From positions 6,343 through 70,342 of the forward strand of contig JAZROV010000002.1 of the NCBI GenBank assembly GCA_045648885.1: a stretch of 64,000 nt of DNA, written 5' to 3'. Every line of letters starts with the position of its first letter. Position 1 is the stretch's first letter. The notes beneath the pieces are model-generated. The model had not been told where the DNA came from. It did no database searches and saw only the letters and a program-made list of their open reading frames with translations. A program made the translations under genes and the position numbers. This stretch comes from Candidatus Enterousia sp. (GTDB lineage: Bacteria > Pseudomonadota > Alphaproteobacteria > Rs-D84). Positions 839-19,678 of this stretch are shown one piece after another.

Positions 839-1798
839 TCATTCATTATCCAGAATATATTTCAATTCCATCATGTCATCTGGCAAATGGGTTTTAAAAT
901 GCATTTTTTCACCAGTTATTGGGTGGATAAATTCTAAAACTTCTGCATGCAGCATCTGGCCATCGTGCGTTTTTAAAAATTCCAACAATTCTGGATTTTT
1001 CACAGTCCCCAGACGCGATTTTTCACGTCCATAAAGTCCGTCACATAAAACTGGAAAACCATGGGCCGATAAATGAACACGAATTTGATGTGTTCGCCCC
1101 GTCATCAAAGTGCACCGAAACATCGATATACCGCTTTTGTTCCAAACGTCTGCGACATTCACAATAGTATGTGCCGGTTTTCCGCCGCTTTTGACCATAG
1201 ACATTTTTTGACGATTACGCGATGAACGTGCGATATTTCCAGTTATATCTGCCCCACCCCACGTTGGAACACCCCAAACAAACGCAACATATTTTCGCGT
1301 TAAATCATGCGTTGAAAAAATTTTTACCAAACCACGATATGCTGCATCAGATTTTGCAAAAACCATAACACCACTGGTATCTTTATCCAAACGATGAACA
1401 ACCCCAGGACGCGTTAATCCACCCAGCATTGAAAGTTTTGTATGTGATAATAAATTTTGCACCAAAGTCCCGGTTTTATTACCGTTTGACGGATACATAA
1501 CAACACCACGCGGTTTATTTATAACGATGATATCGTCATCTTCGAATAAAATATCCAAATCAAAATCGTTTGAAATATTGTCATATGCAACATCAGATTG
1601 TTTTTGTGATATTTCAACGATAAATTCATCCCCTGACTTGGTTTTATCAGACAATTTTACAGCCACACCATTTGTGCGTTTAATATTAAACTTTTGAATT
1701 TCACTGCGCGAAAATTCAGGCATTTTTATCGACAAAAATTTATCGATACGATTACCAACACTTTCTTCATCAACGATAAAATTTCGAATATCTGGCAT
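839..1798 (-). CDS. rluD: RluA-family 23S rRNA pseudouridine synthase (RluD-like)
   Basis: 319 aa. N-terminal S4-like segment (GNRIDKFL), catalytic motif HRLDKDTSGVMVFAKS, C-terminal HQIRVHL block. Confidence 0.85.
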   Translation of the reverse strand: MPDIRNFIVDEESVGNRIDKFLSIKMPEFSRSEIQKFNIKRTNGVAVKLSDKTKSGDEFIVEISQKQSDVAYDNISNDFDLDILFEDDDIIVINKPRGVVMYPSNGNKTGTLVQNLLSHTKLSMLGGLTRPGVVHRLDKDTSGVMVFAKSDAAYRGLVKIFSTHDLTRKYVAFVWGVPTWGGADITGNIARSSRNRQKMSMVKSGGKPAHTIVNVADVWNKSGISMFRCTLMTGRTHQIRVHLSAHGFPVLCDGLYGREKSRLGTVKNPELLEFLKTHDGQMLHAEVLEFIHPITGEKMHFKTHLPDDMMELKYILDNE

Positions 1799-1801
1799 AG
1801 T

Positions 1802-2299
1802 TTATCTGTCGTTCCAATCTTTATCTTTTTCACATTTTGAAATATCGATTGTGAAAGAAGTATCCCCACTAATCGGACAAGTAATCATACCTGTTGTGCG
1901 CGCATCAGATGCATCTGCAGTGGCATTGCGCCATGCAAACGATATTTTTTCAGGTTTATACACACAAACCAAGCGCAAATAATCATCTGATTTACCGGTG
2001 GGCGACAACCAAACGCGAACATTGCTGGCTTCGCCATAACAGGGGAAAGCGTCCAGATAGTACAACACCAGACCCTGTTTTACAAATTTTTTATCCATAC
2101 CGCGAACGGTCCCAATATATTGACGCAGTGGCAAACCAGTTACGGCCGCCCAATCAACCGTCGTAGAAAAAATACTGACACGCGTCTGGGGCACCGGATT
2201 TGACGGCTGAACCGAAGCGGTCGGTCCAGATTGCGGAGATTCTGTCGCAAAAGCAGAAACACACATCAAAGACAAAATTATCGCGGATAAAAATTTCAT
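1802..2299 (-). CDS. hypothetical secreted protein
   Basis: 165 aa with signal peptide MKFLSAIILSLMCVSAFA|TE. 4-nt ATGA overlap with the upstream gene and 3-nt gap to rluD. No family recognised. Confidence 0.5.
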   Translation of the reverse strand: MKFLSAIILSLMCVSAFATESPQSGPTASVQPSNPVPQTRVSIFSTTVDWAAVTGLPLRQYIGTVRGMDKKFVKQGLVLYYLDAFPCYGEASNVRVWLSPTGKSDDYLRLVCVYKPEKISFAWRNATADASDARTTGMITCPISGDTSFTIDISKCEKDKDWNDR

Positions 2300-2808
2300 T
2301 TTGATTCCTTTAATTCAATCGACACGCGTTTAACATTCGCTGGTTCAACCGACAAAATGTGATTAAATGTCACCGTGGTTTTAGGCTCTATTAACGTAGA
2401 CGGCGGGATAAAAGTCTGGCGTGAAAGCAAATTATCTTGGGCGTCATACGATAAAATTATCAGATTTGGCAATCCATATATGTCGTCTGTAGTGTTTTTA
2501 ATTGTTCCTGAAACAAAAATACGATTATTGCCATTTTCATCTTTCACTACATGTACGCTTTTTTCATCGATGCTGGCGACCAGTGGTTTATTATGCGCGC
2601 GTTCATTTTGAAAACGCACAATCACAACAAAAGAAAATATACACGCTGCAACCAGCGCACAAATGGCAGCGATAAATTTCAGCACTGTATTTTGTCGAAA
2701 AGACCGACGCGGCATCCAGACATGTCCACACACCGCGCATTTCAAAGGAATATTTGGAAATTTATCCAAACTGTATTCTGTTTTGCAAAAATCACATATC
2801 GTTTTCAT
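2296..2808 (-). CDS. MJ0042-type zinc-ribbon membrane protein (DUF3426-like)
   Basis: N-terminal CDFC..x..CAVCGHVW zinc ribbon, one TM helix (VLKFIAAICALVAACIFSFVVIV), then a beta-rich C-terminal domain. Confidence 0.6.
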   Translation of the reverse strand: MKTICDFCKTEYSLDKFPNIPLKCAVCGHVWMPRRSFRQNTVLKFIAAICALVAACIFSFVVIVRFQNERAHNKPLVASIDEKSVHVVKDENGNNRIFVSGTIKNTTDDIYGLPNLIILSYDAQDNLLSRQTFIPPSTLIEPKTTVTFNHILSVEPANVKRVSIELKESK

Positions 2809-2810
2809 TT

Positions 2811-4379
2811 TTAATTTGATCCTAAGCCTGCTTCAGTTAAGCATTTTTCTATTTTATCTGAACCAGAGTCTTTGATATTTGAAAGTTTTGCACATTCATA
2901 TTTTTTTGCAATAACATTTTCAATTTCCTGTATTTTTTTCAGATACTGCACGACGCCTTGATCGGGTATTTCACCTTCGGCACATTTTTCACAAAAGCCC
3001 TTTGACCATAAACCATAGGCACTATCTGCATTTTTACAATCGGCTGCAAATTTATTCTCTTCCGCCCGATAAACGATAAACATAGCTTCATTTAAACCAT
3101 TGACATTTTCTTTCAATGATGCAGTTAGATTTATATCATTAAAATTTGCAGATTCTGGCGCTATGAAATAACCGTCATTTTGTTTAGATGCAAAAATACC
3201 ATCAATCTGCAAACGCGTTGTTATCACAGGCGTTTCAAGATTCGTAAAACTGACAATTGATGATTTAATATTGTTTAATGACAAACTTTGTTTGATTATA
3301 CAATTTTCAGCATACAAATTGGCATTGAAATTGGCCAGTGTATCGCAAATAGAAGAATTGATGTCGCCTGTTATTATTATTTTACCCCCCCCCACAGCGT
3401 CTAAATTTTCTATATATCCTGACGCCCCGTCGATATTACCACTTAACATTGTCACGCCATCAACAATTAAACTGCTGTCCGAAACAAAATTCAAATTTCC
3501 ATTCACAATCGCCCTTGATGCATCGTAATTTGTGTTCAATGTCACCCCGTGAATAAAATTCAAATTTTTAATATCAATGTTTTCACCACCCAGCGTCAAA
3601 CCGTTTGAAAAATATGCTGACTGAACCTTACCTAAACTGCCAACATTTACAATATCATGTCCATCCAGATTCAAAAATGATAACATCGTCGAATCTTCTG
3701 GGTTATTATCTTCGGGATCTGCCGCATTCAATCGCCACAAATATTTTGAATCGCCACGTGTCGCATTGGTTGTTTCAACCAGACCACTGGCATAACTCGA
3801 TAAATTAAAATTCGATTTTTCTGTGTGGAACGCATTAAAACCACCGCGTATAAAATTACCGTCAACAAAGCCGACTTTGCCGCCACCCAAATTTACAATT
3901 TCACGTGTCCGCATTGAATTGACACTGCCGTTGGTTAAAAGCACGACCCCTTGCAAGACGGCTTCATCATTATTGTCGCGTGATTTACGAATACGCAATT
4001 TATAATCGTTCGCGTAATCGGCTGCAAATTCAGGCGTCAAACCATAATTTATCAATCCGTATTGACCATCTTCACTGGATAATATTAAACAATCGATTTT
4101 CTTATGATCTGTGTCTTCAGTGAAAACAACATCATTTACCGGACGTAATAATTCACTTTGTTTTTCAAAAATGCAACGTTCCAACGCACGGCGAACAATA
4201 TCCATTTGTTTAACAACTGCGACATTACGCGCACGTTCAATCGTGTTTTTTTGATATCGAACAACAAATGGTATCGCTATTGCCGCCAAAGCGACCGACA
4301 ACATCAATTCCATCAACATTCCACCACGAAGTGAATTATGTTTTAATTTGCTGAAAAGATTTTTATTCTTATTGCTCAT
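2811..4379 (-). CDS. large prepilin-type N-terminal domain protein (modular-pilin-like), paralog A
   Basis: 522 aa. Leader ..NSLRG|GMLMELMLSVALAAIAIPFVV (Gly, Glu at +5, hydrophobic helix). Shared block LNLDGHDIVNVGSL, N/G/D/I-rich repeats, Cys-bearing C-terminus. Confidence 0.7.
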   Translation of the reverse strand: MSNKNKNLFSKLKHNSLRGGMLMELMLSVALAAIAIPFVVRYQKNTIERARNVAVVKQMDIVRRALERCIFEKQSELLRPVNDVVFTEDTDHKKIDCLILSSEDGQYGLINYGLTPEFAADYANDYKLRIRKSRDNNDEAVLQGVVLLTNGSVNSMRTREIVNLGGGKVGFVDGNFIRGGFNAFHTEKSNFNLSSYASGLVETTNATRGDSKYLWRLNAADPEDNNPEDSTMLSFLNLDGHDIVNVGSLGKVQSAYFSNGLTLGGENIDIKNLNFIHGVTLNTNYDASRAIVNGNLNFVSDSSLIVDGVTMLSGNIDGASGYIENLDAVGGGKIIITGDINSSICDTLANFNANLYAENCIIKQSLSLNNIKSSIVSFTNLETPVITTRLQIDGIFASKQNDGYFIAPESANFNDINLTASLKENVNGLNEAMFIVYRAEENKFAADCKNADSAYGLWSKGFCEKCAEGEIPDQGVVQYLKKIQEIENVIAKKYECAKLSNIKDSGSDKIEKCLTEAGLGSN

Positions 4380-4398
4380 TATCTTGTGGCCTGAGTTT

Positions 4399-5724
4399 TT
4401 ATATATTTAATGTTTGAACAACATCATTAAAAGGATTTGTATTTAATATCATATATGGTTCCATTCCATTAATTTTTAAATGATCTTGGGGGATAGAAAG
4501 ATTTGGGACTATTATTTCCCCGCTTTCAGTTTTATACAGAGAATATTTTAAAATTCCTGAATTTTGCTCCATAACAAAAGAACTACCTTTGTCTTCCTCA
4601 TAATCTTTTTGTTTCGGCAGTGTATCACTGGAAATCGCAACTTCACCATCTTTGTTATCAAAGCCGACATTGAAAACCCCGTCACCGGTCAGGTTTTCCA
4701 GATATGTCGCGTTTAATATACTCGCCGTTGTTTCCCCCAGATTTAACTCTTTATCTATTCCCAAACTTAAATTGTTACCAATTTCTATATTACCACTTAA
4801 TGATATATTTTGTGCATACAACGTGCCAGCAGTCGCATCAATTGTTTTCGTATCAATTTCTTTCAGATTGTCGACATCTCCCAGAACAGTCAGTTTTCCA
4901 ATATGTGGGCTGCCATCTGATGTTTTTATTTCTGCGCCTGATGAAAACGTCGCATTATTGACATTCACAATACCTGAGCCGGCATTCAAAAATAACGCCT
5001 GGGCCGAATTAATGTTTGCTATACCACAATCATCCCCAACACAACAAACATCCCCACTGCAACCGTCTGGATTTGGAACCGATATATTTTTTACGTTATA
5101 AAGGTTATTAAAATTCATATTCAAAGTGCGTTCCATTCGATTTAAATGCGCACCACCAATCGTTCCACGATGCAGATATCTATCATTGTCCGCTTCGCTG
5201 AAATCATGTGTTATTTTGAACACCAAATCTCCGGGGGTTAAATCATCATCAAAACTGACCGCCCAATCATTTGAATATGCAATATTGTCATCACTGACCA
5301 GCGCAGCATCCGAACCAATATATTTTGCGATATTTGCAGTCCGATACGCAGTTCCCAAAGAAAACAACAAATATACCTCTATGGAAGAGCCACCAACCAT
5401 ATTATTTCTGAACACCCAACCGCTTTGCGCCAATGGCGCAATCGACGCTAATTCTTCTGCAGTAAACGGGACCGCAGAACCGTCATCAGATAAAAATTCA
5501 GACTGATTTACACGAACAAAATCTACCACTGGATCGCGCAATTTCACGATTTGGTTTGCCAGTGCAACATCTTTCACAGTATTATTCATATCTGCAATAT
5601 GATAATACATAAACGGCACCAACATCAAAACCAATGCAACCGCCAAAATAACTTCCAGCATTGACGCACCACGTTGGGTTTTAAAATTTTGTCTTAAAAA
5701 ATTTTTTTGTTTAACCACGACCAC
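4399..5724 (-). CDS. large prepilin-type N-terminal domain protein, paralog B
   Basis: 441 aa. GTG start with GGGGTG SD. Leader ..FKTQRG|ASMLEVILAVALVLMLVPF. Shared blocks RYLHR and LNMNFNNLYNVKNI. Confidence 0.7.
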   Translation of the reverse strand: MVVVKQKNFLRQNFKTQRGASMLEVILAVALVLMLVPFMYYHIADMNNTVKDVALANQIVKLRDPVVDFVRVNQSEFLSDDGSAVPFTAEELASIAPLAQSGWVFRNNMVGGSSIEVYLLFSLGTAYRTANIAKYIGSDAALVSDDNIAYSNDWAVSFDDDLTPGDLVFKITHDFSEADNDRYLHRGTIGGAHLNRMERTLNMNFNNLYNVKNISVPNPDGCSGDVCCVGDDCGIANINSAQALFLNAGSGIVNVNNATFSSGAEIKTSDGSPHIGKLTVLGDVDNLKEIDTKTIDATAGTLYAQNISLSGNIEIGNNLSLGIDKELNLGETTASILNATYLENLTGDGVFNVGFDNKDGEVAISSDTLPKQKDYEEDKGSSFVMEQNSGILKYSLYKTESGEIIVPNLSIPQDHLKINGMEPYMILNTNPFNDVVQTLNI

Positions 5725-6511
5725 TATTACACCCCGATCTGTTTCCAGTCTTGCACAACACTTGATTTATACGACGTTCTGCCCGTTCCAAATAAATATA
5801 TTTACACAATATATTTTGCATCAAAGATCCGTTATTCGTACTGATTTGATTTTTGAGATCCAAATCCTGTTTCAACACAGTAGCACAATTTATCGTAGTT
5901 GTATTATTCGTTTTTTCCGGATGATCAATTATTGCTAATTTATTCAACAAACAATTCCCCCCCGAACAATCAATCAAATCAACATCTGGAAATGCAGACA
6001 TTCCCGACGGAAACATCACAGCCCGAACGCCATCATTTGGATGTTCTTTCAAATACGCAAAATTTTTATCTCTGAATGTGATTTTAGATGCATAAAGGAC
6101 CCGCGTATGTATTCCACTTCCACCACTAGATGTTTCGTAAGTATTTCCTATGACATTCAAAAATTTACTGACCCCTATTTTGCTCGCAACACCGGTTGCA
6201 GAATTTGCAGTAAAACTGTTACCTATATTCAGATAAACAGGATGTTCTGATGTTCCAATAAATAAATTACCGCAACTCGAAGGTTTAAGGGTCTCTTCTT
6301 CATATGCCGTTGGCAAAAGCCCCAGACCAACCGCACTGTCTGTTTTTCCAATTTGCCCCCCAACCGACACATTCAAATTTTGCAGATATTTACCATATAG
6401 ACCAACAGTTTGCAATTCGGCATTATCAACATTCAAAGAACTGGTTTTCACGCTTAATGCAGAATCGGTGCTGCTTTTTTTATTAAAACGAAATTTGTCG
6501 CCTTTTAACAA
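5711..6511 (-). CDS. C-terminal portion of pilin-like paralog C (same frame as 6554..7207, separated by one TGA)
   Basis: 266-aa ORF whose only possible start is a TTG with no SD, and no ATG for more than 150 codons. N/G/S-rich like the C-terminal halves of paralogs A and B, with a DCSGGNC motif resembling GCSGDVCC of paralog B. Confidence 0.5.
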   Translation of the reverse strand: MLKGDKFRFNKKSSTDSALSVKTSSLNVDNAELQTVGLYGKYLQNLNVSVGGQIGKTDSAVGLGLLPTAYEEETLKPSSCGNLFIGTSEHPVYLNIGNSFTANSATGVASKIGVSKFLNVIGNTYETSSGGSGIHTRVLYASKITFRDKNFAYLKEHPNDGVRAVMFPSGMSAFPDVDLIDCSGGNCLLNKLAIIDHPEKTNNTTTINCATVLKQDLDLKNQISTNNGSLMQNILCKYIYLERAERRINQVLCKTGNRSGCNSGRG

Positions 6512-6553
6512 TCTAAAAACGTTTGCATTTGATGATGAACCGCCCCCAGTCTG

Positions 6554-7207
6554 TCATTTTAAACCACCCCCCATCAGCGCCAGTGTATCAATGCGCGCAC
6601 GATAAAAATTTCCAGATTCTGCATGCAATTCACCAACATTTTCAATACGATTCCAATTCATATCTAATTCAGTCAAAAAACCAATATGTTCGTCAGTTTC
6701 ACGACGCGAAACAATGTCTGAATAAATCGTATCAACCGGCACAGATACATACACATTTCCATTAGATGCATGCGCAAAAAAACCAACCATACGCGCCAAT
6801 TCCGCCAATTGATAATCTGATAAATCACCACGCGTAGCAACAACATTAGCTTTGAGAGTATAACCATTGCCATTTTCTTTTGCTTTTTTATTGATGTCCA
6901 AACTGATATTTTGGTTCAAAGATGTCGTTGTATTAAATCCACTGGGCAAACCATACGGCATCAACGTATCAATCAAGGTTTGTCCAGAATAACTGGTATT
7001 ACCATAATTAAAACCGTCCTGGATAGATTTATCACGCAAATAAACACGTGCAACATCATGCAAAGTTTCAATAGACGTTTTCGCAGAATACATTTTTGCA
7101 GACATATCTCGCGCCGCCAATTTGTTCGCCAAAAACGGCATAAACGCAAACACCAACGTCAGCGCTAACAAGGCCTGCAAAAGAAAATTTCCGTTTTGTT
7201 TTTGCAA
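6554..7207 (-). CDS. prepilin-type N-terminal portion of pilin-like paralog C
   Basis: 217 aa. TTG start 5 nt after an AGGAGAG SD. Leader MQKQNG|NFLLQALLALTLVFAFMPF (Gln at +5). Shared block LDMNWNRIENVGEL about 25 aa before the TGA stop. Confidence 0.6.
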   Translation of the reverse strand: MQKQNGNFLLQALLALTLVFAFMPFLANKLAARDMSAKMYSAKTSIETLHDVARVYLRDKSIQDGFNYGNTSYSGQTLIDTLMPYGLPSGFNTTTSLNQNISLDINKKAKENGNGYTLKANVVATRGDLSDYQLAELARMVGFFAHASNGNVYVSVPVDTIYSDIVSRRETDEHIGFLTELDMNWNRIENVGELHAESGNFYRARIDTLALMGGGLK

Positions 7208-7351: not shown

Positions 7352-7657
7352 ATGCAAAACAAAAAAAATCAAGCACCTGTTGGTCAGATGATTCAGCGCT
7401 GTCATAAATGGCGTCAAAAAAGAAAACAATACATAGATTTGGCACGTCAAACAACTGACGAAATTGAACGCGAACGTTTGCTGCAAACGGCTGAACATTA
7501 TGGTCGTATTGTCAACGAAGAACAGGTTAAAATCGATTCTCAGCGTGATCCGAAAGATAAAAACGCGCAAACCGAAGTTGTCGAATCTGGCGAAAACGCT
7601 GAAACGAATGACGAAGAAGAAATCGGCTTTCCAGATTTTATTGCGAATTTAAAATAA
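7352..7657 (+). CDS. small DUF4167-like protein
   Basis: 101 aa. KRKQYIDLARQTTDEIERERLLQTAEHYGRI resembles the alphaproteobacterial DUF4167 core (..Y..LAR......R...E...QHAEHY.R), with an acidic tail. Confidence 0.45.
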   Translation: MQNKKNQAPVGQMIQRCHKWRQKRKQYIDLARQTTDEIERERLLQTAEHYGRIVNEEQVKIDSQRDPKDKNAQTEVVESGENAETNDEEEIGFPDFIANLK

Positions 7658-9275: not shown

Positions 9276-9704
9276 ATGAAAGAACAATCTGGACGTTCAT
9301 TAATAGAAATCGTTGGTGTTTTGGCAATCGGTGTTATTATGATTGCATCTGCATATAACATGTATCGGTCAATTGACCAGCGTCAAAAACGTATGATTGC
9401 ATACGAAGATGTAAAAGAAGTCGCCAGAAAAACGAAAATTTTATATGAATATTCCGGCTATGACGGTTTGTCTGTTTCTAAATTGGTGTCTGCCGGCGCA
9501 TTAAGCAGTTCAAACGCACCGATTGGTTCATGGACAATATCGTCATATAATGAAAACAAAGAATTTAAAATAACTCTTTCTGGTTTGACGCGTAATGAAT
9601 GCAAATATTTTGCCACGAAAAAAAGCAGTGATTGGGCATACAATACTTCTGCAAGTTGCGGTGCATCTGAATCAAATCCGTCTATTACGTTTTTTGTTAA
9701 ATAA
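9276..9704 (+). CDS. type IV pilin-like protein (conventional size)
   Basis: 142 aa. GGGGGA SD. Leader MKEQSG|RSLIEIVGVLAIGVIMIASAY (Glu at +5). C-terminal Cys pair (ECKYF..x..SASCG) like a pilin disulfide loop. Confidence 0.7.
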   Translation: MKEQSGRSLIEIVGVLAIGVIMIASAYNMYRSIDQRQKRMIAYEDVKEVARKTKILYEYSGYDGLSVSKLVSAGALSSSNAPIGSWTISSYNENKEFKITLSGLTRNECKYFATKKSSDWAYNTSASCGASESNPSITFFVK

Positions 9705-9706
9705 AA

Positions 9707-10387
9707 ATGTGGTTTAATAAAATTATTTTTATTTGTTTGGCTGGTGCGATTGCGGGTTGTGTCCAATATCACAGTCCCGGGCGTGAAACTTGGTCAACAT
9801 ATTTACGCGGGGCCAGTTTTACAGACATGACCGACACTGCACGCACTGCGAAATTACCGGTTTATATGGGGCATGGCGGAAAGATAGTGACCAGTGACGG
9901 TGCATTATCTGCAAATATGCAATACGGCGATAAAAACAATATCGATAACCGTGTGCTGATTAAATATATGGCCGATTTAGAATATGAATTATACGACGCA
10001 TTACGAAAACCTGGGATGACGGTCCAGCGCGCCGGCACAGATGTCGTTATAATATTGGTCCGCGACAGTTTGATGAAATTAAACGAACCAGATATTTCCA
10101 AAGACGGCGCTGATACTTTGCAAACCATATCGAAAATATTAAACAAATACAACGCGACATTTATGGAAATTGCAGGATATACAGATTCTATGACCAACCA
10201 AAATGCTGCGGTTGCGCTGTCTTTGGATATGGCCGAACGTGTTGGTGTGTTTTTTGCACAAAATAAAATTTCTACATCGCGTATGTTCATTGTCGGACGC
10301 GGTTCTGCCCGTCCAATCGCAGGTCAAGATGACATGGGACGTTTAACCAATCGTCGTGTTGAAATTCGACTGACGCCGGCACGATAA
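9707..10387 (+). CDS. OmpA/MotB-family peptidoglycan-binding lipoprotein
   Basis: 226 aa. Lipobox LAGAIAG|C. C-terminal OmpA-like domain (IAGYTDS..., NRRVEIRL). Starts 2 nt after the pilin stop. Confidence 0.8.
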   Translation: MWFNKIIFICLAGAIAGCVQYHSPGRETWSTYLRGASFTDMTDTARTAKLPVYMGHGGKIVTSDGALSANMQYGDKNNIDNRVLIKYMADLEYELYDALRKPGMTVQRAGTDVVIILVRDSLMKLNEPDISKDGADTLQTISKILNKYNATFMEIAGYTDSMTNQNAAVALSLDMAERVGVFFAQNKISTSRMFIVGRGSARPIAGQDDMGRLTNRRVEIRLTPAR

Positions 10388-10469
10388 ATATCAATAAAAA
10401 TGCTTTACTTTTTCATCAAAAGATTGCTATATTCGTATTATGAACAATTAAACCAAAAGGAAGAAAGAA

Positions 10470-11120
10470 ATGTCAGAAACAAATACATCTTTGAAACAAT
10501 ATACAAAAATGGGTATCATTGCCGCGGTCGCAATTGTGATTGCTTTGATTGTTGGTATTGCAATTGGTGGACGCGGTAAAAACGTAGATACAGCAACTGC
10601 GATTTCCGATGTGTCTACAAACGCGGTCAGTGCGGCTGATTTGAAAATCGCTGTTATAAATATGGATAAAATTCAAATTGATTCGAACGCATTGAAAGAT
10701 TTGCGTAACCAGCGCACTGCGTACGAAGAAAAATTAAAATCTAGAATGGAAAAAGAACAAAAAGCATTGGAAAAAGAAAAAGCCGATATCGAAAAGAACC
10801 AGGACGTTTTATCCCAAGAAGCCTTGCAACGTCGCGTGGTCGATTATCAACGCCGCGTGACAAATCTGCAACGCAGTTTGAATGAATCTGCAAATGCAAT
10901 TGACGCGTCATATCAAAACGCGTTGGCAACATTACAGAAAAAACATCTGGACCCTGTTATCGAAGGTGTCATTGCGAAAAAGAAATTGTCATTGGTTATC
11001 GATGGTCGTATGGCACGCATCGGCGGCGACGTCAAAGGATTAGACGTGACAGACGAAGTTGTGAATGCTTTGAACAAAAAAGTATCATCAGTCAAAATGG
11101 AAAAACCAAAGGGTTTTTAA
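10470..11120 (+). CDS. skp: OmpH/Skp-family periplasmic chaperone
   Basis: 216 aa. N-terminal anchor/signal, KIAVINMDKI start of the OmpH domain, long coiled-coil K/E/Q-rich arm, C-terminal LDVTDEVVNALN. Confidence 0.55.
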   Translation: MSETNTSLKQYTKMGIIAAVAIVIALIVGIAIGGRGKNVDTATAISDVSTNAVSAADLKIAVINMDKIQIDSNALKDLRNQRTAYEEKLKSRMEKEQKALEKEKADIEKNQDVLSQEALQRRVVDYQRRVTNLQRSLNESANAIDASYQNALATLQKKHLDPVIEGVIAKKKLSLVIDGRMARIGGDVKGLDVTDEVVNALNKKVSSVKMEKPKGF

Positions 11121-11134
11121 TTAATAAACAACTT

Positions 11135-11170
11135 AAAAAAAAACAACCGCCACAACGGCGGTGTTTTTTT
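11135..11170. terminator. bidirectional rho-independent terminator
   Basis: A-run, ACCGCC-acaac-GGCGGT hairpin, T7 run. Lies between convergent genes. Confidence 0.75.
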
Positions 11171-11178
11171 ATAGTGTT

Positions 11179-11535
11179 TTAACCACCGACACATCGGCTG
11201 GCGGCCGCATCTCGTTTAAACTTTTGAAGATAATCGTCAATTATGGTCTGGATAGATTTATCATCAGAATTCGTTTTATATGGAACATCAACCCTGATAT
11301 TAAACCAATTCATCCAAACACGCATTTGCCATTTATCTGAAATTCTTATAGATTCTTTGACCGCTTGGTCTATTTTGATTCCATCAACCGGTGTAAATTC
11401 TATATTGAAATCGTTCAGCCCGAAAATATCTGGACAATGTATAACATATTTGCCCAGATATTTGTTATCATCAGAATAATGTTTATATGGTTTTACCAAT
11501 ATGATATGGAACCACTTTTTCAAAGAACCTTTCAT
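11179..11535 (-). CDS. hypothetical protein
   Basis: 118-aa ORF 20 nt downstream of infB. No family recognised, and it does not resemble RbfA. Confidence 0.4.
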   Translation of the reverse strand: MKGSLKKWFHIILVKPYKHYSDDNKYLGKYVIHCPDIFGLNDFNIEFTPVDGIKIDQAVKESIRISDKWQMRVWMNWFNIRVDVPYKTNSDDKSIQTIIDDYLQKFKRDAAASRCVGG

Positions 11536-11555
11536 GATGTTGTTCCGCTTTTTAT

Positions 11556-13958
11556 TTATAATTGCGCTTTGACTTCTTGGACTTCATAGCATTCAACGCG
11601 GTCGCCCTCTTTCAGGTCGTTATATTTATCGAAACTCATACCGAATTCGACACCGTTGGATACTTCGTTGACTTCATTCTTTTCGCGACGCAATTCGCCG
11701 ATTTTTCCGTCATAGATAACGACGTTGTTCCGCAACAGGCGCACAAACGCAGATTTTTTGATTGTGCCCTCTGACACGCGACAACCGGCAACACGTGTGC
11801 CTTTGCCCACAGTGAACAAAGCGATAACATCGGCATATCCAATAAAGTTTTCGTGTTTTTCTGGCGCTAATTTTCCAGACAAAATTTCTTTGATTTCGTC
11901 TGTGATACGATAAACAACACTGTGATAACGAATATCAACACCGTTGTTGCGCGCCATATCACGCACAGCAGAATCTGCACGAACATTAAACGCAATTATA
12001 ACCGCACCCGATGCAGTCGCCAAACGAATATCGCCTTCTGTGATTTGACCAACCCCAGACGACAACAATTCAACCGCCGCTTTGTCTGAATTAAAACCAC
12101 GCAACATGTCAGAAATTGCTTCGACTGAACCTTGGACGTCTGCACGCAAAATAATTGGCAAAGTCAATTTTTTCGTTTCGTCACGTTTCGCAAACAATTC
12201 TTCGAGTGACGAACGTTTAACCGCGTTCGCTTTGTCTTTCGCTTTCTGGACACGATATGCCGCGACTTCACGTGTTTGCGCTTCGGTTTCCATAACATGC
12301 AATTCGTCGCCTGCATTTGGAACAGATTCCAAGCCCAACACCATTGCTGGCTGGCCTGGTTTAACACTTTTCACGCGAACGCCATTTGAATTTATCAGAC
12401 CGCGCACACGACCAAATGTTTCACCAACAACGAACACATCACCAACAGACAAAGTTCCCTGGCGCATCAAAACAGTTGCAACCGCACCCAGACCTTTTTC
12501 CATTTTGGCTTCGACAACATAGGCAGACGCCAGCATATCAGGATCGGCCTTTAAATCCATAATTTCAGATTGCAACAAAATTGCTTCTTCCAGTTTATCC
12601 AGACCCATTTTTGTTTTTGCAGATATTTCAACACATTGAACATCGCCGCCCATATCTTCGACCTGGACTTCTTGTTGCAACAAATCTGTTTTTACGCGCA
12701 TTGGATCGGCTTCTGGTAAATCGCATTTATTTATCGCGACAATAAACGGAACATGTGCAGCACGAATATGATTTATCGCTTCAATAGTTTGCGGCATGAT
12801 TGAATCATTCGCAGCCACAACCAAAACAACGATATCCGCAATTTGTGCGCCACGTGCGCGCATCGCTGTAAATGTTTCGTGTCCCGGTGTATCCAAAAAT
12901 GTGATTATTTCCCCAGATTTAGTTTTTACTTCATACGAAGAAATATGCTGGGTAATGCCGCCCGCTTCGCCTGCGACGACATTTGCATTACGAAACGCGT
13001 CCAACAGCGAAGTTTTACCGTGATCAACGTGGCCTACAACAGTCACAACCGGCGCACGTTTTTGTAAATTATCTGGATTTGGTTGTTGTTCCAAGATGTT
13101 TGCGTATGGTTTTACATCAACACGTTTTACCGTCGCACCAAATTCAGATGCCACCAATTCCGCAGTGTCTGCATCAATAGATTGATTTTGTGATGCCATC
13201 ATACCCATTTCCATCAATTTTTTGATGACATTACCAACCTTTTCAGCCATGGCGGCCGCCAAATCTTTCACCGTTATCGTATCAGACAGCGTCACAACAT
13301 GTTCAACCTTTTGTGGGGCAGAAAATGCTGCACGCGCTTTTTCACGAAAACGTTTCAATGACGCTTCGCTGCGACGGCGATTTGCACCACGCAGACCGAT
13401 TTCATCATCATCTTCATCTTCGCCGCCGCCGATGACAATATCATGAATTGAAATTTTACCGCTTTTGTTAAAATCTTTTTTGAAACGATTTTGTTTTCCA
13501 AAACGCGTATCATTTTCATCTTTGTCATATCCGCGATTGCCATGATTTTGCGCAGCAACATTTGATTTTTTGTTTTCGTGAGTGTTTTCACGTGGTGGAA
13601 CATTCACAATATCTTCGACAATTTGTTCCGCTTCGCTTTCACGCTGAGCCAGTTGTTCTTTGACCGCTTCGTATTCACGATTTTCGCGTTCAATTTCCGC
13701 TTCACGGGCGCGACGTTCGGCTTCTTCTTGGGCTTCACGTTTTTTGCGTTCTTCATCTCTGGCTTTGGCTGCAGCCAACACAGCGCGCAATTTTTCATCT
13801 GCTACGCTGCGTGTTGGTTCAACTTTTTTCGGTTCATCACGCAATTCGTTATTCCCAGGTGCAACAATGCGACGCCGTCTTTCGACAAAGACAGCGTCCC
13901 CTTTCTTGCTTTGCACTGCGTCAATTGTTACTGATTTTCCAAGTGTCAATGTTGCCAT
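11556..13958 (-). CDS. infB: translation initiation factor IF-2
   Basis: 800 aa. G1 [13 protein letters not shown]3 DTPGHETF, G4 NKCD, charged K/E/R-rich N-terminus. Confidence 0.97.
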
Positions 13959-13981
13959 TTTTTAACCTTTGGTTAAATTTA

Positions 13982-14671
13982 TTATTCTTCGTCTTCGGTA
14001 TTTGGAACAATTCCATATGCTAATTCGCGCGCTTTCATAACAACACGTTCAGCCAAACTGTTCGACATATTGTCTTCGCCCAGAATTTCAACCAATTCAT
14101 CAGATGCTAAATCTGCCAAATCAGACAAAGATTTAACGTCGTTTTCACCCAATTTCATGATAATTGGACGTTTGATGAAATCGAATTTTAACAAATCGTC
14201 GCTCATACCCATTTTGTGACCATTGTCAAAATAATCTTGTTCTTGTTTTGCCAGATATGCCCGTGCACGATTTTGCAATTCAACCGCCAATTCTGTGTTA
14301 AAGCCTTCGATTGATTCCAATTCAGATTGTTCAACATAGGCGATTTCTTCGATTGTTCTGAAACCTTCTGTGATTAACAATTGCGCGATTGTATCATCGA
14401 CATCCAGTGCACCAGTAAACAATTCTGTTTTTTCTTTGAATTCTTTGGCGCGACGTTCTTGTTCTTCTGCTTCGTTCATGACATCGATATTCCAACCTGT
14501 TAATTGAGACGCCAAACGAACATTTTGACCACGACGACCAATTGCCAAAGATTGTTGATCTTCGGTCACAACAACCGCAGCAGTATGTGTATCTTCGTCA
14601 ACAATGATTTTTGCGACCTTGGCTGGTTGCATAGCATTCACGATAAACACAGCAGGATCTTCTGAATACAA
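13982..14671 (-). CDS. nusA: NusA, C-terminal segment (KH domains and acidic tail)
   Basis: ..DPAVFIVNAMQPAKVAKIIVDEDTHTAAVVV..AIGRRGQNVRLASQLTGWNIDVM aligns to E. coli NusA as I recall it. Same reading frame as 14687..15529. Confidence 0.85.
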   Translation of the reverse strand: MYSEDPAVFIVNAMQPAKVAKIIVDEDTHTAAVVVTEDQQSLAIGRRGQNVRLASQLTGWNIDVMNEAEEQERRAKEFKEKTELFTGALDVDDTIAQLLITEGFRTIEEIAYVEQSELESIEGFNTELAVELQNRARAYLAKQEQDYFDNGHKMGMSDDLLKFDFIKRPIIMKLGENDVKSLSDLADLASDELVEILGEDNMSNSLAERVVMKARELAYGIVPNTEDEE

Positions 14672-14686
14672 AATAACATCGATTTT

Positions 14687-15529
14687 TTAACCATGACATT
14701 CGTTGATAACCGGTTGAATACGTGTTCCCTTAATACCGACAGTCATCCCCACTGCATCAATAGATGGATCCTGGGTTTCAACTGCGATTTTTGCATGCGA
14801 ACCCGGCGCACGTGATACAGATTTAATTTTGATAATACCTTCATAGATTTCAGGCACTTCCTGGGTGAATAATTTTTCCATAAAGCCCGGATGTGTTCTG
14901 GTCAAGAAAATTTGTGGACCTGAATTAGAACGCACAACGTCCATAATCAACGCACGAACACGATCACCCACAGCCAGACGTTCGCCCGGAATCAATTCTG
15001 TATTTTTGATATAGCCTTCTGCTTTGCCGTTGATATCGACAAAAACGTTTCCAAATTCAATACGTTTAACAACACCACTGACGATATCACCAATATTGTC
15101 TTTGAATTCTTCGTATTGGTTGCCTTTTTCAGCATCACGCACACGCGCAGTCATAATTTGACGTGCGGTTTGAAACGCCATACGACCAAATTCTGGTTCT
15201 GGCAACATATCTTCTACAACATCGCCCACAGACGGATTTTTCGCGTATTTTTTCGCTTTTTCAACTGTCAACATCGTGTTCGCATCGTATTCATCGCCCA
15301 TACTTTCAGGTGATTCAATAACAGTAAACAAACGTTTTACATGGATTGCGCCATTTTTACGGTCAATTTGTGCAACGATATTAAACTCTTCGCCATATTT
15401 ATGTTTTGCAATCTTGGCAATCGCGATTTCCAAAGATTCAATCACAGTTTCACGATCTATCATTTTTTCTTGGGCCAAAGAATCAATCGCTAACAATAAA
15501 TCTTGACGTGGCATAGATTCAAAAGACAT
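14687..15529 (-). CDS. nusA: NusA, N-terminal segment (NTD, S1, start of KH1), ending at an in-frame TAA
   Basis: 280 aa. The N-terminal domain and S1 region (GDIVSGVVKRIEFGNVFVDI) are recognisable. It ends ..RIQPVINECHG*, where E. coli has ..RVQAVSTELGGE. Confidence 0.85.
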   Translation of the reverse strand: MSFESMPRQDLLLAIDSLAQEKMIDRETVIESLEIAIAKIAKHKYGEEFNIVAQIDRKNGAIHVKRLFTVIESPESMGDEYDANTMLTVEKAKKYAKNPSVGDVVEDMLPEPEFGRMAFQTARQIMTARVRDAEKGNQYEEFKDNIGDIVSGVVKRIEFGNVFVDINGKAEGYIKNTELIPGERLAVGDRVRALIMDVVRSNSGPQIFLTRTHPGFMEKLFTQEVPEIYEGIIKIKSVSRAPGSHAKIAVETQDPSIDAVGMTVGIKGTRIQPVINECHG

Positions 15530-15729
15530 TTTGTGTACTCCTTACGTATATTTTATTGCCTTTTTATTTTTAAAGGCGGGGTTTTTTCAACCCCGCCCTT
15601 AAAAAAAACTTTTAAGAACATCCCTATTATTATGTCCGAATCGCAAAAATGCAAGAAAAAAATGTGCCGACACGGTTCAATATGCCTTTATTCTTGACGG
15701 GTGGGAATTTGGGCTTTATACTTAAAATT

Positions 15730-16794
15730 ATGAACATTATAAACAGATATTTCAGACGCCAATTACTGGGCATTTTTGTTATGTTATTGCTGATTCTGAC
15801 GGGGTTGGCATGGATGATGCAAATTATGTCTATGATGAAGTTTTTGATAAACTATGGTGTCAGTTTTTCAAGTTTTTTATATTTAATATCTTTTATGATT
15901 CCATTTATTGTGTCTATTATCGTACCATTTATAACATTTATCGCGATAATTTTCGTATATAACAAAATGATTTCAGAAAATGAAATTACTGTTATGGCAT
16001 CAACTGGGCTGTCGCCGTGGCAGATTGCAAAACCGGCAATTAAAGTTGCTGCGATATTGACTGTGTTGCATTTGATATTAAACATATGGATTGTTCCTGC
16101 GTCCCAGGCAAAATTTTACAGTACGCAATGGAATTTGCGATACGGTTTGGCGCATTTGAAATTGCAAGAGGCCGCTTTCACAAAATTAGCCGATGGTTTG
16201 GTTGTTTATGTTGATAATGTTTCGGGCCACGATTTAAACCAGGTTATGTTGTCTGATATGCGTGATAGAAAAAATCAAATGCTGATTTTCGCAGAACGCG
16301 GGAAATTAGTATCAACCGTGCATGGATTGTCAATTGTGACAAACAATGGCTCTTTGCAGATTGCCGGCCAAAACAACAGTTTTACCACCGGTACATTTGA
16401 TAATTTTAATATGGATTTGAATTTGGTCGAAAACGATTCAGATGTGTCTTTCCGCGTTCGTCGTATTCCAACTATCAATTTATTGCGCGATGTTTTTTCT
16501 CAAGACAGTGTGCGTCAACATCATTTGACATTGGTTGAATTGGCTACGCGTTTGATAAATCCGTTTATGAATTTAATTTTAGCCATTGTTTGCACATTGA
16601 TTTTGTTAAAATCTTCGCTGTTGCGGCGTCGCGCCAGTTTTGCACCTGCGGTGGCGGTGTTATCTATGGCAGGAATTATGGCGGGTTATATGTCTTTGTC
16701 GAATATGATTGATACGATAAGTGATTTTTTGTTGATGCTTGTTGGTGTATTTGTGTTGTTATTTGTTTTAATTGGTTTATTATTAAAAAAATGA
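15730..16794 (+). CDS. LptF/LptG-family LPS export permease
   Basis: Start moved to MNIINRYFRRQLLG, the typical YjgP/YjgQ N-terminus. Six TM segments. ATGA overlap with lptD. Confidence 0.75.
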   Translation: MNIINRYFRRQLLGIFVMLLLILTGLAWMMQIMSMMKFLINYGVSFSSFLYLISFMIPFIVSIIVPFITFIAIIFVYNKMISENEITVMASTGLSPWQIAKPAIKVAAILTVLHLILNIWIVPASQAKFYSTQWNLRYGLAHLKLQEAAFTKLADGLVVYVDNVSGHDLNQVMLSDMRDRKNQMLIFAERGKLVSTVHGLSIVTNNGSLQIAGQNNSFTTGTFDNFNMDLNLVENDSDVSFRVRRIPTINLLRDVFSQDSVRQHHLTLVELATRLINPFMNLILAIVCTLILLKSSLLRRRASFAPAVAVLSMAGIMAGYMSLSNMIDTISDFLLMLVGVFVLLFVLIGLLLKK

Positions 16795-18827
16795 AATATT
16801 GGTATTCATCTTTGATGTTGTGCATGGTAATGACAGACGCTTTGGCGTTAGGTGTTAACATGGACGAAGCAAAAACCATCAAATCAGATGAAATTATTTA
16901 TGATGTAAAATCTGGGCAAATGGAATCGTCTGGGAATACAGAAATGACCAATGCATCGGGCCAGCGCATAAAATTAGACCATATATCATTGTCTAAAAAT
17001 GCGTCTGATATGTCGGCAGATGATATTGAATTATGGCTGGGCAGCAATGTGTATGTTCGTGCTGAAAATATCACGCGCGATGGGACAGAAACCATTGCGC
17101 GACATGCCGTATTCACTGCGTGTGATGGATGCGACACATTTGGAAACGCATGGGAAATATCTGGAACCACGGTGATTCATGACCAAGATGAAAAAATGCT
17201 TTATTTTCACAACAGCATTTTTTGGCTTTACAATGACACATTCCCAATATTTTGGTTGCCGTATTACGAAATGCCTGATCCATCTGTGAAATACAAAACC
17301 GGACTTTTATCGCCCAGTTTTAATACAACAAATGGAATGGGGACTCAATTTAATTTGCCGTTGTATGTTAATATTTCTGATCGTCATGATTTTACAACTA
17401 CATTTTCGTATTTAACCCAAGAAAACCCATTGATTCAATTAGAACACAGATTGAATTTAACACATTCTAAATTCAGAACGAACGGTGCATTCACACGGAA
17501 CAAAATTGGGCAAAATCGTTGGTATGTATTTAACCATGATGTCATAGAAATGGGCGAACATGCGCGTGCTACTATAAACATAGACCGAACATCTGATAAA
17601 ACATTTTTGCAAAAATATGGTTTTTACGATTATCAACCATATCTTGATTCTGGGGCAAAAATCGAATTGTTTGGTCAAAACAGTTATGTTGTAGCAGACA
17701 CTCATATATTCCAAGAATTACGCAAACCAGGGCGCAGTCAGACTGTTGCATCTGGGGATATATTACCCAATATTCGCGGTGTTTATCAGACCCAGCCTTT
17801 GTTTGCAGAAACATATTTAAACATTTCTGGTGATGTGTTGGCTGTATCTTCTTCGAAATCATCATCACAGCGCATTATTGGTGAAACACAAATTGTATCA
17901 CCATGGACACTGTGGGGGGGGAATCGTTTAACATTCAGTGCATCAGGGCGATATGATATATATAATTTTGAAAAAACACCGGTGTATAATAACGACGGCG
18001 GTGTTGATGCGTCGTATACCGGGGTAAAAACCAGATTTTTACCCAGCGCATTTGTAGAGTGGGGATTACCATTGTTCAGCACGAAAAACAGTTGGACATA
18101 CATTATTGAACCACGCGCACGTTTGACAGTAATGGAAAGAACAAATTCAAAATCTGTGTTTGCCGTTGACAATGATTCTGCCGGACGTTTTTTATCAGAC
18201 ACGACTTTGTTTTCTGACAACAGATATGCCGGTTTAGATATGTGGGAAAATGGAAATTTTGCAGATTATGGCGCGCGATGGGCTGCATTCAATAATCGTC
18301 ATAATATTGAAGTATTTTTAGGCCAAACCTATGATTTTAACACGCCAAAGCAAGATTTTAACGATAATGGTTTTCGAAATGGTTTTTCAGATTATGTTGG
18401 ACGGATTACATACAGCGATAATCGCTATTTGCAATTGTCAAGCCGTTTCAGATTTGACAGAACAGATATGGCATTAAATCACAATGAAAATTCTTTGTAT
18501 CTGGGGCGTGGAAAAACATATTTAAACATTGGGCACATGTGGGATGCACAACCTATTGACATTTATTCAACTGGCAAAGACAGTATAAATGAGATAATAA
18601 CTGGTATCGGTTTGAAAATAACCGGGCGTTTAAATGTTAAAGAATCGCTGCTTTTCAATGCTGCGACACATGAATTACAACGGCATAGTGGCGGAATATA
18701 CTATGAACATCCGTGCTATTATTTGTCACTGGAATACAAACGCGATAACGCTATCAAAGGTGACTATACCGGTGGCACGACATTCCAATTCAAATTCGGG
18801 ATAAGTATTGATGGCAAACATTATTAA
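16791..18827 (+). CDS. lptD: LPS-assembly outer-membrane protein LptD
   Basis: 678 aa. Signal peptide, OstA-like N-terminal region, aromatic-rich beta-barrel region. Position between the lptF/G-family gene and the surA-like gene. Confidence 0.75.
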   Translation: MKYWYSSLMLCMVMTDALALGVNMDEAKTIKSDEIIYDVKSGQMESSGNTEMTNASGQRIKLDHISLSKNASDMSADDIELWLGSNVYVRAENITRDGTETIARHAVFTACDGCDTFGNAWEISGTTVIHDQDEKMLYFHNSIFWLYNDTFPIFWLPYYEMPDPSVKYKTGLLSPSFNTTNGMGTQFNLPLYVNISDRHDFTTTFSYLTQENPLIQLEHRLNLTHSKFRTNGAFTRNKIGQNRWYVFNHDVIEMGEHARATINIDRTSDKTFLQKYGFYDYQPYLDSGAKIELFGQNSYVVADTHIFQELRKPGRSQTVASGDILPNIRGVYQTQPLFAETYLNISGDVLAVSSSKSSSQRIIGETQIVSPWTLWGGNRLTFSASGRYDIYNFEKTPVYNNDGGVDASYTGVKTRFLPSAFVEWGLPLFSTKNSWTYIIEPRARLTVMERTNSKSVFAVDNDSAGRFLSDTTLFSDNRYAGLDMWENGNFADYGARWAAFNNRHNIEVFLGQTYDFNTPKQDFNDNGFRNGFSDYVGRITYSDNRYLQLSSRFRFDRTDMALNHNENSLYLGRGKTYLNIGHMWDAQPIDIYSTGKDSINEIITGIGLKITGRLNVKESLLFNAATHELQRHSGGIYYEHPCYYLSLEYKRDNAIKGDYTGGTTFQFKFGISIDGKHY

Positions 18828-18847
18828 AAAGAAAAGGAAAGTATCAA

Positions 18848-19678
18848 ATGATGATTAAAAAAGTGGGGCTTTTATTATCAATTCTGATGTTGAATACAAT
18901 TGACGCATTCGGCACCAGTGTCATAGCAACTGTGAATGGCAACCCAATCACAGATTCAGATATTACTGCGCGCACAGAATTGATGGCGCGCCAAGGAAAC
19001 ACATCTGCCACTAATCGTCGTGACGCTTTTCAAAACATTGTGAATGATTATGTAAAAATAAACTATGCGAACAATTTCGGCGTCAACCCAACCGACCAAG
19101 ATGCAGACAAAGAATTAAAACGTATGGATTTAAGCGATATGAATGACACTATGACTGAAATGGCACGTTTGGCAATTCGCGCCGATATTGCATGGGGTGC
19201 AGTGATGTCTCGAACAGTCGTTCCAACAATCAAAGTTTCACAATCAGACATTCAATCTGAAAAAAAAGATTTAATTCGTGAACGTGGTCTGCCAATTGAA
19301 ATGACAATTGTTCGTTTGGTTGATGTCCCAGATTCAATCGCAACACAATTTACAAAACCTAAAAATTGTGATGCCGCGGTGAAAATGGCCGAAGATTTCG
19401 GCGGTGTACCACAAAAATTTACTGCGTTGCAATACGAATTATCAACCGATATACGCAATCGCATCGCCGATTTACCGTTATTGACATGGAATCGTAATAC
19501 GGACAAAACAATGCTTTTGGTGTGCAGCGAACGCAAAACAGATGAATATAAAAATCTGGACGATATAATAAAACAAAATGCCGTTTATCGCAAAGCGTCC
19601 GCAGTCGCAGATCAACAATTAAAACAATTACGTCGCAAGGCTGTAATAATTATAAACGACGACAGATATAAATTATGA
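18848..19678 (+). CDS. surA: SurA-like periplasmic chaperone (parvulin motif degenerate)
   Basis: 276 aa. Signal peptide, SurA N-domain start VIATVNGNPITDSDI. Follows lptD as in the classical lptD-surA arrangement. Confidence 0.55.
   Translation: MMIKKVGLLLSILMLNTIDAFGTSVIATVNGNPITDSDITARTELMARQGNTSATNRRDAFQNIVNDYVKINYANNFGVNPTDQDADKELKRMDLSDMNDTMTEMARLAIRADIAWGAVMSRTVVPTIKVSQSDIQSEKKDLIRERGLPIEMTIVRLVDVPDSIATQFTKPKNCDAAVKMAEDFGGVPQKFTALQYELSTDIRNRIADLPLLTWNRNTDKTMLLVCSERKTDEYKNLDDIIKQNAVYRKASAVADQQLKQLRRKAVIIINDDRYKL

Follow-up and report, generated by a model that had tools for sequence, protein, structure and literature searches.

Three chromosomal PilV-like prepilins encoded side by side in Candidatus Enterousia

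Why would a bacterium with a genome below 1 Mb carry three consecutive genes for large prepilin-like proteins in the midst of its housekeeping genes? We addressed this question computationally for a 64,000-nt stretch of Candidatus Enterousia sp. (GCA_045648885.1, contig JAZROV010000002.1, positions 6,343-70,342 of the forward strand), called here the window, whose own coordinates are used throughout. The three genes, designated A, B and C, open a co-directional, closely spaced run of minus-strand open reading frames (ORFs) that spans 7207 down to 839, with junctions ranging from a 14-nt overlap to a 42-nt gap. Profile comparisons place all three products in the PilV family. PilV is a minor pilin of IncI-type thin pili and a proven adhesin, with a constant part of ~345 residues and a variable C-terminus that determines specificity and selects the recipient cell (PMC9045228). 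The genes in question are the following.

5711..7207, minus strand: gene A, PilV-like prepilin, read in the same frame across one stop and found as single ORFs in relatives
6554-7207, minus strand: ORF of 217 amino acids (aa) in the ORF listing, 5' part of gene A
5711-6511, minus strand: ORF of 266 aa in the ORF listing, 3' part of gene A
4399..5724, minus strand: gene B, PilV-like prepilin of 441 aa, assigned by hhalign to PilV
2811..4379, minus strand: gene C, PilV-like prepilin of 522 aa, assigned by hhalign to PilV and by an AlphaFold2 (AF2) model

An earlier note on this DNA, made from the sequence alone, had described five packed minus-strand ORFs at this place. Their coordinates and junctions were right, but the first two are one gene split by a TGA. 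The start of B overlaps the end of A by 14 nt.

Results

Homology of A, B and C to PilV

Scans of A, B and C against Pfam and NCBIfam gave no match even at E <= 1, and the curated threshold of the Pfam family Shufflon_N (PF04917) was not reached. An exhaustive profile search with the C family found 258 cluster representatives. Three remote relatives passed the PF04917 cutoff of 27.5 bits, namely P0171 (E 1.9e-15, 57.6 bits), P0143 (E 5e-8, 33.2 bits) and P0128 (E 1.5e-7, 31.7 bits). The hidden Markov model searches suggested in the earlier note therefore give nothing for the three proteins directly, but lead to Shufflon_N through their remote relatives. When the N-terminus of P0171 was used in tblastn, pilV was found on 190 plasmids (best E 7e-12), in genes annotated as 'shufflon system plasmid conjugative transfer pilus tip adhesin PilV'.

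We then compared the A, B and C families with four annotated plasmid PilV proteins by hhalign, in alignments covering 195-230 columns. The probabilities were 96.8% for A (E 2.8e-10), 95.9% for B (E 6e-9) and 97.9% for C (E 5e-13). Removal of the N-terminal helix lowered them only to 95.9%, 89.9% (E 1.7e-6) and 97.2%, respectively, and a column-shuffled PilV alignment used as control gave at most 0.2%. Because the match persists without the helix and is lost in the shuffled control, each of the three proteins is, by profile comparison, homologous to the constant region of PilV over its N-terminal ~230 residues. On the same grounds the three proteins belong to a named family (PilV / Shufflon_N) and are not an undescribed kind of protein. 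The earlier note had proposed an undescribed type IV filament-like system and had itself named membership of a known family as evidence against it; in that form the proposal is not supported. Its other suggestion, that these large prepilin-type proteins are tip or minor subunits or adhesins, is supported by the PilV homology of all three and from a PilS-like pilin gene nearby.

PilV is otherwise known from IncI-type plasmids and from integrative and conjugative elements (ICEs). The cluster might then be what is left of a thin-pilus operon from an integrated conjugative plasmid or ICE, with decaying pilV genes, and the stop codon of A in this assembly would fit such decay. Against it, the same housekeeping synteny is found in ~60 genomes, the GC content of the cluster (37-39%) resembles that of the rest of the window, and all three families are well conserved along their length. 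The stop in A is specific to this assembly and the essential gene nusA has one too, pointing to sequence error. No relaxase, type IV secretion system, rci or sfx-like repeats were found nearby. The repeat scan, which covered the A-B-C genes and their surroundings, detected no high-identity inverted-repeat family at the 3' ends of the three genes or past them that would indicate a shufflon, and the genes adjoining them have other identities; the recombinase scan covered part of the 64 kb. We rejected a mobile-element remnant, which we think very improbable, on synteny, GC content and lack of repeats.

Prepilin signals and paralogy

The three prepilin N-termini quoted in the earlier note occur as stated. 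A has a leader of 6 aa (MQKQNG/NFLLQ, the slash marking the predicted cleavage site), with Gly at -1 and Gln at +5. The leaders of B (ending KTQRG/ASMLE) and C (ending NSLRG/GMLME) are basic and 19 aa long, with Gly at -1 and Glu at +5, and are followed by a hydrophobic helix. A complete class III signal, that is, a short basic leader up to Gly, Glu at +5 and a ~20-residue helix, was thus found in B, C and a 142-aa pilin encoded nearby, while A combines Gly at -1 with Gln at +5. This difference is kept among orthologs: 59/62 B proteins and 56/63 C proteins have Glu at +5, whereas 56/59 A proteins have Gln there. None of the window proteins reached the threshold of Pfam N_methyl. When 142 diverse relatives were aligned, G19, E24, P37, G170, R216 and M232 were nearly invariant.

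Pairwise BLASTP among A, B and C was significant only for the N-termini of B and C, and profiles were required to relate all three. Using profiles built from ~60 orthologs each, we obtained alignments of 229-299 columns with probabilities of 96.6% for A-B (E 7e-10), 96.7% for A-C (E 4e-10) and 98.7% for B-C (E 4e-16). With the leader and hydrophobic helix cut off, hhalign still gave 74%, 93% and 96%, respectively. The earlier view of the three as paralogs is thereby borne out, although they are only ~20% identical even within the N-terminal pilin domain. The internal block on which that view was based proved to be part of a family motif, (Y)L(W/H/Y)R ... M..L(N/D)M.g..I.NV, which includes the nearly invariant R216 and M232. 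A homolog search for B yielded 13 proteins, too small a set to model B separately.

Predicted structure of C

A first AF2 model of C, built on 28 sequences, had a predicted local distance difference test (pLDDT) score of 58.6, and its Foldseek search gave no match. With 142 sequences the mean pLDDT rose to 79.2, and residues 21-210 mostly scored 86-97 (75-79 at 81-100). In this model a 56-residue N-terminal helix (17-72) is followed by short helices and a beta-sheet, whose strands 126-134, 140-148, 169-173 and 176-179 have pLDDT 88-96. Further strands lie at 251-313 (pLDDT ~75-90), residues 320-420 are poorly defined and the C-terminus is helical and Cys-rich. The predicted topology is as expected for a pilin domain.

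Foldseek searches of the 142-sequence model against PDB and BFVD (viral models) returned no significant match; the pilins PilS (1q5f, E 1.7) and ComZ (6qvi, E 3.4) appeared in the PDB search, neither of them significantly. Tapirin, left-handed beta-helix proteins, MinC and tail-fibre-like models were matched at chance level. The profile of the C family gave a weak N-terminal match to geopilin in PDB (E 0.2), in which the helix aligned with a 4-residue gap. A PDB sequence search with plasmid PilV found no match, hence no solved PilV for comparison. The earlier note had seen beta-solenoid or adhesin repeats in the C-terminal halves. AF2 does predict beta-strands there, but with no significant fold match a solenoid, like a tail-fibre fold, is unproven, and the sole hint of a solenoid is a sub-threshold bactofilin match in one giant relative.

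The C-terminal cysteines mentioned in the earlier note are present in C but turned out to be a clade-specific trait. The window protein has nine cysteines in all and a helical Cys-rich C-terminal extension of ~90 residues (2811-3100) specific to its clade, whereas typical Enterousia C orthologs are ~440 aa long, without extension and without Cys. C relatives of the same clade have still longer Cys-rich tails, the proteins reaching 637 aa.

The in-frame stop of gene A

The two ORFs of A are in one frame, and a single TGA at 6554-6556 lies between them. In ~58 related genomes the two halves correspond to one uninterrupted ORF of 450-460 aa. In a relative with 93% identical DNA (L074), the codon at this position is TCA (Ser) and A is intact at 497 aa, so that one C-to-G difference breaks the gene in this assembly. 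We considered recoding of TGA as Trp or selenocysteine and rejected it, because TGA is a common, normal stop that terminates 16/65 genes in the window, the relative has TCA, and no suppressor or selenocysteine tRNA was present in the window.

The window also contains nusA (13982-15529, minus strand) with an in-frame TAA at about 14687-14689 (ECHG, stop, KIDVI), which splits it into ORFs of 280 and 229 aa, whereas the NusA of relatives is a single protein of 515 aa. Counting the TGA of A, the 64 kb contain two conserved genes with an in-frame stop, which suggests either consensus or base-call errors of the assembly or real nonsense alleles. With the essential gene nusA affected too, a sequence error in A is no less likely than a true nonsense mutation.

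Distribution of the triad and its remote relatives

The ordered A-B-C triad was found in ~60 Enterousia (order Rs-D84) genomes. All 62 genomic loci (62/62) come from gut or rumen metagenome-assembled genomes assigned to 'Candidatus Enterousia' or to unnamed Alphaproteobacteria, and they share the synteny nusA-infB ... Skp-OmpA-pilin-dnaX, then A-B-C-Zn-SP-rluD, in which Zn and SP denote the zinc-ribbon and signal-peptide proteins described below. Enterousia genomes measure 0.75-1.0 Mb and lack the tricarboxylic acid (TCA) cycle, respiration, flagella and standard transporters; the organism has been proposed to live in dependence on partners (PMC12306168).

A second lineage has a triad followed by recO. 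In locus L078 of this lineage, genes 1, 2 and 3 are A-like, B-like and C-like, and the A-like protein has Glu at +5. In L072, genes 2 and 3 are B-like and C-like and gene 1 is cut by the contig end; this locus probably carries the ordered triad too. An independent tandem triplet of paralogs, of 1,092-1,203 aa and each with a prepilin N-terminus, was found in L071 (47.5% GC, 10001-20383). As the count of three recurs in housekeeping contexts, stoichiometric assembly appears a better explanation than spare copies.

The giant triplet of L071 adjoins a class-I aminoacyl-tRNA synthetase gene and hopanoid genes. In two other uncultured bacteria, giant PilV-like prepilins of 1,006-1,046 aa occur in single copy near lptC-lptA-lptB-rpoN (L065:27-3842 and L076:9297-13021), and both are preceded by a conserved protein of 220-229 aa with a hydrophobic N-terminus.

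These patterns bear on the possibility that A, B and C are alternative adhesins, each incorporated separately at the tip or along the filament and each giving a different binding specificity, as a hard-wired substitute for shufflon variation. In plasmid PilV the specificity resides in interchangeable C-termini (PMC9045228). The C-terminal halves of A, B and C are likewise unrelated, as their profile alignments end after ~230-330 residues, and no shufflon repeats were seen in or around the genes. However, pilin domains only ~20% identical, distinct orthologs and a fixed order in two divergent lineages suggest non-redundant structural roles, and the loss of Glu at +5 in A alone fits a unique position in assembly. 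We consider alternative adhesins unlikely.

The neighbouring pilin, the ZitP-like protein and other genes

The surroundings of the triad contain the following further features.

9276..9704, plus strand: small PilS-like type IVb pilin of 142 aa, with N_methyl and PilS matches, directly after dnaX
9707..10387, plus strand: OmpA-family lipoprotein (Pfam OmpA, E 8e-12)
2296..2808, minus strand: ZitP-like bitopic protein of 170 aa (FxLYD, zinc ribbon, DUF3426-like)
1802..2299, minus strand: secreted protein of 165 aa with signal peptide, no family match in Pfam or NCBIfam
839..1798, minus strand: rluD, RluA-family 23S rRNA pseudouridine synthase (TIGR00005, E 2.4e-72), last of the run
7352-7657, plus strand: protein of 101 aa, divergent from gene A (DUF4167, E 1.4e-4, sub-threshold)

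The 142-aa pilin, which was missing from the list in the earlier note, lies 2 kb upstream of A-B-C and starts MKEQSG/RSLIE. It is conserved in 59 loci, with G6, E11 and two cysteines, C109 and C128, invariant. Its own Pfam N_methyl match is below threshold (E 0.017), but 13/16 orthologs match N_methyl (E down to 0.002) and 8/16 match Pfam PilS, PF08805 (best 1e-5). With plasmid PilS ('type 4 pilus major pilin') as query, phmmer gave E 1.7e-4 for the window pilin and reached 7e-7 among its orthologs; the match was weak when hhalign was run against one PilS sequence (46%, E 2e-4). Judged from these matches, the protein is the obvious candidate for a major subunit. The gene of the OmpA-family lipoprotein always adjoins that of the small pilin, here with a gap of 2 nt, and the dnaX-pilin-OmpA block moves as a unit in L051, where it is rearranged relative to the A-B-C operon. 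A link of the lipoprotein to the filament is conjecture.

On the other side, the stop codon of C is followed after 2 nt by the start codon of the gene for the 170-aa protein, which is conserved in 63 loci. This protein has a putative N-terminal zinc ribbon (C5-x2-C8 ... C24-x2-C27), one transmembrane helix and a predicted periplasmic FxLYD/DUF3426-like domain. The NCBIfam FxLYD domain scored 27.2 bits against a cutoff of 23, while Pfam Zn_ribbon_4 (E 1e-3) and DUF3426 (E 0.045) were both below threshold. In Caulobacter, the periplasmic DUF3426 domain of ZitP is required for pilus biogenesis (PMC5182063). With the Pfam scores below threshold and the gene unlinked to the triad outside Enterousia, a connection of the ZitP-like protein with the filament is suggestive only.

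The gene of the 165-aa secreted protein overlaps the zinc-ribbon gene by 4 nt and is conserved in 62 loci, and the position of the 101-aa protein is conserved in 60 loci. Beyond the left edge of the window, relatives have after rluD a Cys-rich secreted protein of 1,159-1,184 aa (L074:7445-10924 and L001:13612-17166), which has a signal peptide and no Pfam match, is unlike A, B and C, and is followed by LpxD.

Discussion

A predicted filament tip

We propose that A, B and C are PilV-family minor pilins, three ancient paralogs that would be processed, assembled at a filament tip and adhesive; we put the probability of this reading at about 0.55. The analysis itself establishes the PilV homology, the features of a class III signal, the paralogy, the conserved order of the triad and the PilS-like neighbour. 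From these we infer processing, filament incorporation, heterotrimer formation, adhesion, the kind of ligand and a part for the ZitP-like protein. Each prepilin would sit in the inner membrane, anchored through the hydrophobic helix at its N-terminus, and a prepilin peptidase encoded elsewhere would cleave behind the conserved Gly and take off the basic leader. From their translationally coupled genes the three subunits would be made and joined into one heteromeric priming or tip complex with A at the very top, and this complex would cap a filament polymerised from the PilS-like 142-aa pilin. The beta-rich C-terminal halves would project from the tip and bind a surface ligand, on a partner cell or on gut host material, and the ZitP-like protein might position the machine or aid its assembly. 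A single heteromeric cap with A on top is proposed because of the translational coupling, the fixed gene order, the ancient divergence of the pilin domains and the loss of Glu at +5 in A. A partner or host ligand would suit a genome smaller than 1 Mb and an organism thought to be partner-dependent.

Several observations weigh against this proposal. In the 64 kb and ~70 related loci (~1.2 Mb), phmmer to E 10 with plasmid PilN, O, P, Q, R, T, M and A24 peptidases as queries, together with Pfam scans of unassigned ORFs, revealed no prepilin peptidase, GspE/PilQ-type ATPase, GspF/PilR platform, secretin or PilM/O/P. The statement in the earlier note that the 64 kb hold no type IV filament machinery is confirmed. 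Among the components of a type IVb pil operon (PilN, PilQ, PilR, PilS, PilU), a PilS-like pilin alone was present nearby, and the unassigned window ORFs were LptF/G, TPR, UDG, YgjV, hexapeptide and APH-like proteins or had no match. The sole genomic survey of Rs-D84 reports type IV pili in another lineage and is silent for Rs-D84 (PMC12306168), a silence that is weak negative evidence. The fold searches gave no significant match, so that the pilin fold rests on model topology; gene A bears a stop codon in this assembly; and the ZitP-like gene is unlinked to the A-B-C triad outside Enterousia. Finally, the heterotrimer, the position of A at the tip and the ligand are analogies drawn from the tip complexes of GspK and of CofB/TcpB.

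The same missing machinery and the same silence of the survey would be explained if A, B and C were not filament subunits at all, the lineage having lost or never had a pilus machine, and were instead anchored in the inner membrane as pseudopilus-like or exapted envelope proteins. Envelope-biogenesis genes in the neighbourhood, namely OmpA, Skp and LptD/F/G in the window and LpxD beside the cluster in relatives, would suit this as well. However, the visible DNA makes up ~7% of one genome of about 0.9 Mb, and Gly -1, Glu +5 and the helix Pro have been kept in four pilin-like genes over ~60 genomes under strong genome reduction. In type IV pilins these three residues bear on peptidase cleavage and filament packing, and a simple membrane anchor needs none of them. 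We regard a purely envelope-anchored role as rather improbable.

Returning to PilV-family minor pilins at a filament tip, a bolder form of the proposal is that the ordered triad makes a heterotrimeric PilV-type cap with one subunit per strand of a three-start filament and A on top. Such a cap, spread across several uncultured, small-genome alphaproteobacterial lineages, would serve as an attachment organelle that ties these metabolically dependent bacteria to partner cells, possibly with a minimal or unconventional machine positioned by the ZitP-like protein. We offer this tentatively and think it on balance unlikely.

In plasmid conjugation, PilV-type adhesins are known to determine the specificity of the pilus; here they form a fixed, triplicated chromosomal feature. 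What is new is a chromosomal, triplicated, shufflon-less PilV module together with a PilS-like pilin, in several small-genome uncultured Alphaproteobacteria, which current family models have missed. That ~4.5 kb of a 0.75-1.0 Mb genome is given to three large pilin-like proteins plus a pilin argues that they are central to the lifestyle of the organism. These genomes have lost respiration, the TCA cycle and most transporters. The role that seems most plausible is in attaching the cell to a partner or to a host surface. The analysis extends the Shufflon_N superfamily well past Pfam/NCBIfam detection and provides a name and a testable model for several hundred database proteins, mostly unnamed or hypothetical.

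Comparison with known systems

The nearest known counterparts are the PilV proteins of R64, R721, TP114 and PAPI-1 (PilV2), minor pilins and tip adhesins of conjugative type IVb thin pili. Like these, A, B and C have a class III signal, a length of ~400-500 aa and a shared N-terminal ~230 aa including the LP.GF, LQG.V and GG.GG(F/Y) blocks and the (Y)LYR...M..L.M.gN.I.N motif. As in PilV, the C-terminal part, which in PilV carries the binding specificity, is non-homologous, and a PilS-like pilin gene lies near A-B-C. Unlike PilV, which is encoded by one gene, A-B-C are three ancient, fixed-order paralogs, chromosomal and amid housekeeping genes. They have no shufflon, Rci or sfx repeats and no adjoining pilL-pilU machinery, and are too diverged for the Pfam/NCBIfam models. 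Their hosts are Alphaproteobacteria with genomes below 1 Mb, whereas PilV is hosted by gammaproteobacterial plasmids and ICEs.

The ZitP-like protein can be compared with ZitP of Caulobacter crescentus, whose layout its predicted architecture follows (PMC5182063, PMC5182065). It is about half as long (170 vs 311 aa), with sub-threshold Pfam matches, and ZitP serves a Tad (type IVc) pilus through CpaM, whereas no CpaM or Tad genes were seen at the A-B-C locus.

For the proposed cap, two systems are instructive. In type II secretion, three different minor pseudopilins, GspI, GspJ and GspK, form one pseudopilus cap, and the top subunit, GspK, is the largest and is without Glu at +5. The product of gene A resembles GspK in the lack of this Glu, but the Gsp proteins are far shorter and their genes lie within the gsp operon, and none of the window proteins scanned matched the Pfam families of type II secretion pseudopilins. 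CofB of the colonization factor antigen III (CFA/III) pilus of enterotoxigenic Escherichia coli and TcpB of the Vibrio cholerae toxin-coregulated pilus (TCP) are large minor type IVb pilins of ~420-520 aa, in which beta-rich domains come after a pilin domain. As trimers they occupy the tip of the filament, where they start its assembly, and they are the model for the proposed three-subunit cap. Neither the PDB sequence search nor Foldseek gave a match of C to CofB/TcpB. A CofB or TcpB trimer consists of three copies of one gene product, whereas A-B-C are three paralogs. Should these paralogs build one cap, it would parallel the CofB/TcpB tips, with three different natural subunits in place of a homotrimer.

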